Shown here: positions 3,856-4,413 of the stretch, piece by piece
Numbering within the stretch: position 1 is the first letter of the stretch
Layout of the letters: the number at the start of each line of letters is the position of its first letter
Source of the DNA: Escherichia coli
Lineage (GTDB): Bacteria > Pseudomonadota > Gammaproteobacteria > Enterobacterales > Enterobacteriaceae
Length of the DNA: 64,000 bases
Reading direction: 5' to 3' (one strand)
NCBI RefSeq assembly: GCF_045037415.1
Contig: NZ_CP173438.1
Notes under the pieces: model-generated
What the model was told of the DNA's origin: nothing
Database searches by the model: none
Seen by the model: the letters and a program-made list of their open reading frames with translations, nothing else
Position numbers and translations under genes: made by a program

Positions 3856-4413
3856 ATGACCCTACGCAAGATTCTGGCACTCACCTGCCTGCTGTTGCCG
3901 ATGATGGCTTCCGCACATCAGTTCGAAACCGGTCAGCGAGTGCCGCCGATTGGCATCACCGATCGTGGCGAGTTGGTGCTTGATAAAGATCAGTTTAGCT
4001 ACAAAACCTGGAACAGCGCGCAGTTAGTGGGAAAAGTGCGAGTACTGCAACATATTGCTGGTCGCACCTCTGCAAAAGAGAAAAACGCGACGCTGATTGA
4101 AGCGATTAAATCAGCGAAGTTACCGCACGATCGTTACCAGACCACCACCATTGTTAACACCGACGACGCAATTCCGGGTTCCGGCATGTTTGTGCGCAGC
4201 AGTCTGGAGAGTAATAAAAAGCTTTATCCCTGGTCGCAGTTTATTGTTGATAGCAATGGCGTCGCACGCGGTGCCTGGCAGCTGGATGAAAAAAGTTCCG
4301 CTGTAGTGGTGCTGGATAAAGACGGTCGCGTGCAATGGGCCAAAGACGGGGCGCTTACTCAGGAAGAGGTGCAGCAAGTGATGGACCTGCTGCATAAATT
4401 AATTAATAAATAG
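3856..4413 (+). CDS. ytfJ: Periplasmic protein YtfJ
   Basis: 185 aa ORF with signal peptide [20 protein letters not shown]; matches E. coli YtfJ. Confidence 0.9.

Follow-up and report, generated by a model that had tools for sequence, protein, structure and literature searches.

The window analyzed here is a stretch of 64,000 nucleotides from an Escherichia coli chromosome (contig NZ_CP173438.1); several human isolates match it at 100% identity along 25 kb. The part that concerns us carries the gene order paeA (ytfL), ytfK, ytfJ, cysQ, and cpdB (Table 1). The initial annotation had described an 11-bp tail-to-tail overlap of ytfJ and cysQ that leaves no intergenic space, a description borne out by three sources. 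In the ORF list and in the raw sequence, the two reading frames have 11 bp in common and zero intergenic bases between them, and the same 11-bp overlap stands in the RefSeq/PGAP annotation of a strain that is 100% identical over 1401 bases (window 3800-5200). The codon phase of the overlap, derived from the ORF coordinates, is (123:132). In a survey of prokaryotic overlaps, this phase was the commonest among convergent overlaps of 5 nt or more, and 58 convergent overlaps were counted in E. coli (PMC2174442).

Table 1. Features at the cysQ-ytfJ junction; positions are those of the sequence named in the first column.
Sequence	Feature	Position	Strand	Description	Evidence
Window	ytfJ	3856-4413	+	185 aa, YtfJ_HI0045 family protein; C-terminus DLLHKLINK, then stop TAG at 4411-4413	ORF and family matches
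Window	cysQ	4403-5143	-	246 aa, 3'(2'),5'-bisphosphate nucleotidase; C-terminus NPGFRVSIY, then stop TAA (reverse complement of 4403-4405)	ORF and family matches
Window	ytfJ/cysQ tail-to-tail overlap	4403-4413	both	11-mer TTAATAAATAG, containing both stop codons	
Window	Unoccupied insertion point	4403-4406			BLAST breakpoints, pairwise BLAST, junction alignments
Window	ytfK, left neighbor	3325-3531	-	DUF1107	RefSeq annotation mapped from identical strain, and ORF
Window	cpdB, right neighbor	5333-7276	+	Divergent from cysQ	RefSeq annotation mapped from identical strain, and ORF
Window	Weak 7-bp hairpin CTGAATC-CTG-GGTTCAG	4419-4435	-	Inside last cysQ codons	Consensus scan
Escherichia albertii NBRC 107761 (L008)	1504-bp insert, 33% GC	4792-5949		385-aa pentapeptide-repeat protein, unrelated to YtfI	PF00805 at 7.6e-12
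Citrobacter youngae ATCC 29220 (L045)	2120-bp insert			Radical SAM/SPASM enzyme and 298-aa membrane protein	
Two Kluyvera (L059, L062)	Insert of about 905 bp	about 4556-5460		Peptidase_S11 protein (D-Ala-D-Ala carboxypeptidase-like)	
K. intermedia (L068)	71-bp spacer	4556-4626		Strong hairpin only	

Both ytfJ and cysQ are genuine protein-coding genes. For YtfJ, the family matches are PF09695 (1.5e-77) and TIGR01626 (5.5e-92); CysQ matches the NF008182 equivalog over its full length at 9e-159 and PF00459 at 8.6e-52. Alignment to the curated full-length family models runs end to end for both proteins (residues 1-246 of 246 in CysQ and 1-183 of 184 in YtfJ), the C-terminal residues RVSIY (CysQ) and HKLL.K (YtfJ) are kept across genera, and the identical junction recurs in thousands of complete genomes. 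These three observations refute the idea that the overlap is an artifact of annotation or ORF calling, with one gene in fact ending earlier, or an assembly error at the junction; we found no evidence in its favor and give it practically no credence.

How might transcription of the two genes end? With zero intergenic bases between ytfJ and cysQ, there is no place for an intergenic terminator. In the overlap state, neither transcript could stop at such a site and each would have to terminate inside the partner gene, the candidates being Rho, head-on collision of RNA polymerases, or the weak hairpin at 4419-4435. No other terminator-like site lies close to the junction; the stem of this hairpin has 3 G-C pairs, and past it on the cysQ strand comes the T-rich stop/overlap region, in which five of the eight tail bases are T, so that the site just passes the scan. 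The tail on the ytfJ strand, GAACGACT, has no T-tract.

The overlap could conceivably be functional in itself, either because the hairpin and the AT-rich 11-mer form a conserved intrinsic or bidirectional terminator or because antisense 3' ends couple the expression of the two genes. The terminator-like site on the cysQ strand (4435-4419) with its T-rich tail is compatible with this, as are hairpins of different sequence at the same place in many genera, completed by rare Arg codons (CGG, AGA). There are also precedents: at convergent pairs, the place where RNA polymerases collide is set by stem-loops (bioRxiv 10.1101/2022.10.23.513370), and for about 20% of the E. coli genes that overlap convergently an intrinsic terminator is predicted within the partner gene (PMC2174442). 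We nevertheless regard a functional overlap as unlikely. The 66-nt context of the hairpin folds no better than its shuffles (z of +0.8 and +0.4 in the window, with a range of -0.8 to +0.8), a synonymous-codon null that keeps the 11-residue peptide gives p=0.15 for the window and 0.02 to 1.0 across 61 distinct sequences, and 16 of these 61—those with the Arg codon CGC—lose the hairpin altogether; the ytfJ strand, moreover, offers no T-tract. With fold z about 0, a synonymous null that is not significant, and loss with CGC, a conserved terminator embedded in the last cysQ codons was rejected as unsupported. Rho-dependent termination and head-on polymerase collision are equally possible.

Comparison with described systems places the junction among ordinary convergent pairs. 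Like the bidirectional terminators and programmed collisions reported previously (bioRxiv 10.1101/2022.10.23.513370), it has a small palindromic stem-loop where two convergent genes meet, but this stem-loop lies inside coding sequence, is weak, has a T-tract on one strand only, and is not conserved beyond what the peptide constrains. As in the surveyed convergent overlaps (PMC2174442), two real genes share their stop regions in the commonest phase, with any terminator inside the partner. Nothing essential sets the junction apart from these; its 11 bp exceed the 4-bp tetramer, which is very common, and related genera use 4-bp (TTAA) and 7-bp registers at this same gene pair.

Is the same junction found in K-12? 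The initial annotation had placed a small gene, ytfI, between cysQ and ytfJ on the K-12 map, and had proposed an alignment with K-12 as the check. This placement is correct: in MG1655 (L001) the order is ytfJ, ytfI, cysQ, and the overlap is absent. The gene is, however, not very small, as ytfI takes up 939 bp (312 aa, on the strand of cysQ) of a 1.2-kb segment, with a distance of 1212 bp between the stops of ytfJ and cysQ. The breakpoints fall at BLAST query positions 603/604; homology on the left runs up to a sequence ending in GTTGCTCAA and on the right begins with TTAGTAAATAG, which comprises the cysQ stop and last codons. Junction alignments show that 4 nt (TYAR) at the breakpoints could be assigned to either side. 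The K-12 insertion leaves the end of cysQ unaltered and turns the YtfJ tail from LINK or LLNK into LLK, with a stop codon that comes from the insert. Hairpins lie at both of its ends, one just past the new ytfJ stop and the other, a 21-nt inverted repeat, adjoining the cysQ stop.

Several smaller features of this region were also noted. The 3' half of ytfJ, beside the insertion point (window 4170-4395), has 13 mismatches to K-12 in 226 bp; upstream of it, window 3305-3956 has 2 mismatches in about 650 bp. Comparison with a further Escherichia that has the empty site (L005) shows a similar but less marked skew, and the cluster may be no more than a stretch of ytfJ that varies more. The 17-mer TTACTGCATAGCACTTT forms a perfect tandem duplication in K-12 (L001 667-700) and is present as a single copy in the window (3306-3322), between the paeA stop at 3263 and the ytfK stop at 3325, just after the hairpin CGGCTCCTGAATCAGGAGCCG downstream of paeA; its copy number is another small strain-variable point near the junction. 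A full-length match to the Rfam ES239 sRNA (window 5210-5332, minus strand; 157 bits, E 4e-32) lies in the divergent intergenic region between cysQ and cpdB, upstream of cysQ on the cysQ strand, and runs as far as the opening bases of the cpdB ORF. This match apart, neither the junction nor the K-12 insert gave a known RNA family.

How common are the two states within E. coli? BLAST recovers the contiguous, window-type junction in 3800 of 5420 matching complete E. coli genomes and the ytfI segment in 1623 of 5426, with at least 80% coverage in 1605 of the latter. The overlap is thus the majority state, at about 70%, and the ytfI state the minority one, at about 30%. Because the contiguous and ytfI-bearing classes together cover essentially all genomes, the locus is polymorphic, with two alleles, of which K-12 carries the rarer one. 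Among the contiguous genomes are BL21(DE3), ATCC 25922 (Seattle 1946), and the O26 strain 97-3250, and among the ytfI-bearing ones K-12, O157:H7, and O55:H7; since K-12 and BL21 differ, the distribution of ytfI is patchy. The junction had been proposed as a strain-variable point, and these counts confirm that it is one, although the variability had already been published (PMC4720273).

At this locus, ytfI has been described before as a K-12-specific, H-NS-bound insert that is absent from SE11 and SE15 (Higashi et al. 2016, PMC4720273, S10 Fig), with H-NS signal over cpdB, cysQ, ytfJ, and ytfK in K-12 and not in SE11/SE15 (PMC4720273). The window is in the SE11/SE15-type state, without any insert. 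What is added here to that report is the population frequencies, the polarity from outgroups, the exact breakpoints, the orphan status of YtfI, and an age (dS about 0.7).

What, then, is the segment that K-12 carries? Its GC content is 34.7%, compared with 52.7% for ytfJ and 55.4% for cysQ, and ytfI is its sole annotated gene. No mobility signature was found in it, as neither its protein nor its DNA matches any known family. YtfI belongs to no Pfam or NCBIfam family and yields only noise-level matches in PADLOC (a 17-bit Cas6b), in PHROGs (19 bits), and in a PDB sequence-profile search. A database of 5.8 billion clusters contains 17 clusters of YtfI, all at 69% identity or more and many truncated, and their source names, where given, are E. 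coli or Shigella. When 1.84 billion representatives were scanned exhaustively with HMMER, only fragments of YtfI came back, plus one marginal match to an Ig-like repeat protein, which looks like a coincidence of strand motifs and was judged meaningless. An AlphaFold2 model from the shallow alignment is poor (mean pLDDT 50.3, pTM 0.39). On these searches, YtfI is an orphan protein restricted to Escherichia and Shigella.

At the same junction, a divergent Escherichia lineage (L006) carries a ytfI that is 69% identical to that of K-12. Between the two, ytfI has dN 0.19, dS 0.70, and dN/dS 0.27; the flanking ytfJ and cysQ have dN 0.009-0.017, dS 0.59-0.66, and dN/dS 0.01-0.03. Since the divergence of ytfI between K-12 and L006 is on a par with that of its flanks, the insertion may predate E. 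coli proper. We infer from these values that ytfI is a real gene, that it evolves fast, and that it entered Escherichia early and has since persisted as a lasting presence/absence polymorphism, its age resting on one pair of alleles. The flanks track species relationships and do not link the two ytfI-bearing haplotypes. Introgression of the ytfI haplotype from an L006-like lineage was rejected, as the K-12 flanks cluster with E. coli empty-site alleles and not with L006. In all compared non-Escherichia loci ytfI is absent. In its composition and patchy distribution, the segment bears the marks of a putative horizontally acquired, H-NS-silenced islet, and binding by H-NS has been reported for it (PMC4720273, S10 Fig). 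The K-12 insert is not flanked by any direct repeat of at least 14 nt; a target-site duplication was rejected, since there is only the 4-nt TYAR ambiguity, which is not distinguishable from chance.

Which of the two states came first? We compared 82 loci—81 fetched plus the window—drawn from a one-genome-per-species YtfJ scan (80 loci) and including the two E. coli reference loci. The genes overlap by 11, 7, or 4 bp in 75 of the 82, so the overlap is neither a chance stop-codon mutation nor peculiar to this strain. The 11-bp register is found in Escherichia whittamii and two other Escherichia lineages, in Citrobacter, Salmonella enterica arizonae, Klebsiella, and Raoultella, and in some Kosakonia; the 7-bp register in Enterobacter, Lelliottia, Pluralibacter, Leclercia, and Silvania; and the 4-bp register (TTAA) in Yokenella, Trabulsiella, Kluyvera ascorbata, and K. 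georgiana, one locus (L027) having been assigned to this last type by eye. The motif TYARTAAATAG is kept in every locus of the 11-bp register, and the C-terminal tails are conserved across the compared loci (RVSIY, RVSLY, or RVSIF in CysQ and HKLL.. in YtfJ). Neither ytfI nor remnants of it were seen between cysQ and ytfJ in the compared outgroup (i.e., non-Escherichia) loci. The presence of the overlap across Enterobacteriaceae outgroups indicates that it is ancestral and that the ytfI state is derived. We thus consider it highly probable that the window shows the ancestral enterobacterial arrangement, with an unoccupied site, and that K-12 and about 30% of E. coli carry a derived insertion.

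The alternative is that the K-12 state is the original one and that this strain or its lineage deleted ytfI, the overlap being secondary. The age of the gene lends this some force: with a dS of 0.70 that is near that of the flanks, ytfI is old in Escherichia, so some empty lineages could have had ytfI-bearing ancestors, and its decay is shown by common truncated forms (clusters of 251, 182, and 180 aa). Deletion would, however, have had to recreate the 11-mer exactly, and likewise the end of ytfJ that encodes LINK and the stop, and the window junction has base for base the same architecture as that of more than 60 other Enterobacteriaceae species without a trace of ytfI. The only secondary loss that was examined, moreover, left scars. 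In the E. coli strain ETEC1738 (L083, 1371-2664), an IS1 sits at the former position of ytfI, ytfJ is truncated and carries a pseudogene annotation, and only the final 164 bp survive of the K-12-type insert; this is an IS1-associated secondary loss of ytfI. The window junction has no such scars, be it leftover insert, an IS element, or truncation of a neighbor, its structure being the same as in the outgroup species, and the window holds no remnant of ytfI: neither the K-12 insert DNA nor YtfI gives any blastn or tblastn match in the whole 64 kb. Deletion is thus largely refuted by the outgroups, and we rate it as very improbable. The earlier statement that the strain lacks ytfI stands as far as absence from these 64 kb goes; the site is more aptly described as unoccupied and ancestral than as the product of a loss.

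Under an ancestral overlap, the history of the junction can be reconstructed as follows. In the window, ytfJ and cysQ end within a shared AT-rich 11-mer, TTAATAAATAG, each stop lying inside the last codons of the partner, and this layout is stable over the family in 11-, 7-, or 4-bp registers. In K-12-type genomes, a derived insertion of 1.2 kb would have entered exactly at the junction, leaving the end of cysQ intact, replacing the last codons of ytfJ, and placing hairpins at both ends of the insert. This insertion would be old within Escherichia, and the two states would have persisted as a presence/absence polymorphism. The empty allele of a given E. coli lineage need not have been inherited unbroken; homologous recombination with an empty-site donor could have brought it back.

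Has the junction received other cargo? The seven nonoverlapping loci are the two ytfI types and five others (Table 1), in which the genes are set apart by inserts that range from a hairpin-bearing spacer in K. intermedia to a two-gene segment in C. youngae. In the latter, the ytfJ 3' end forms a direct repeat on the two sides of the insert (42 nt, 95%), at 4507-4548 and 6638-6679, and the membrane protein has a Cys/Gly/Ser-rich tail with a terminal SSCGG-type repeat, for which a 15-nt tandem array (5466-5570) codes; with its radical SAM/SPASM partner, the cargo looks like a small peptide-maturation pair. Insertions that have survived at the junction retain both C-termini. The cysQ/ytfJ junction is, on these observations, a modest recurrent insertion point.

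Chromosomal hotspots are places where horizontally acquired genes insert between conserved core genes. The cysQ/ytfJ junction resembles them in being a junction of core genes with unrelated cargo in different lineages. It differs in that its inserts are tiny, one or two genes, without an integrase, a transposase, or a tRNA target; clear flanking direct repeats occur only in C. youngae, and most genomes are empty. A bolder reading would make the stop-codon overlap a preferred landing site in Enterobacteriaceae for small cargo free of mobility genes, where only inserts that rebuild both C-termini survive, and would give YtfI an unrecognized conditional function (e.g., during conflict with a phage or a competitor). 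Unrelated cargos number at least four, in four genera, and the 42-nt duplicate of the ytfJ tail in C. youngae fits, because integrative elements that restore their target gene do likewise. Even so, we think such a preference, with its accompanying role for YtfI, rather improbable.

What do these results mean for the biology of the locus? The cysQ-ytfJ overlap is real, ordinary, and already known, and its overall significance is low; YtfI, as a true orphan, poses a small question of its own. K-12 is an atypical reference at this junction, its insertion having been reported previously (PMC4720273). Because H-NS is not bound to cpdB, cysQ, ytfJ, and ytfK in ytfI-less strains (PMC4720273), K-12 expression data for these four genes may not transfer to strains like that of the window. 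More generally, a conserved convergent overlap can still serve as a repeated insertion point.
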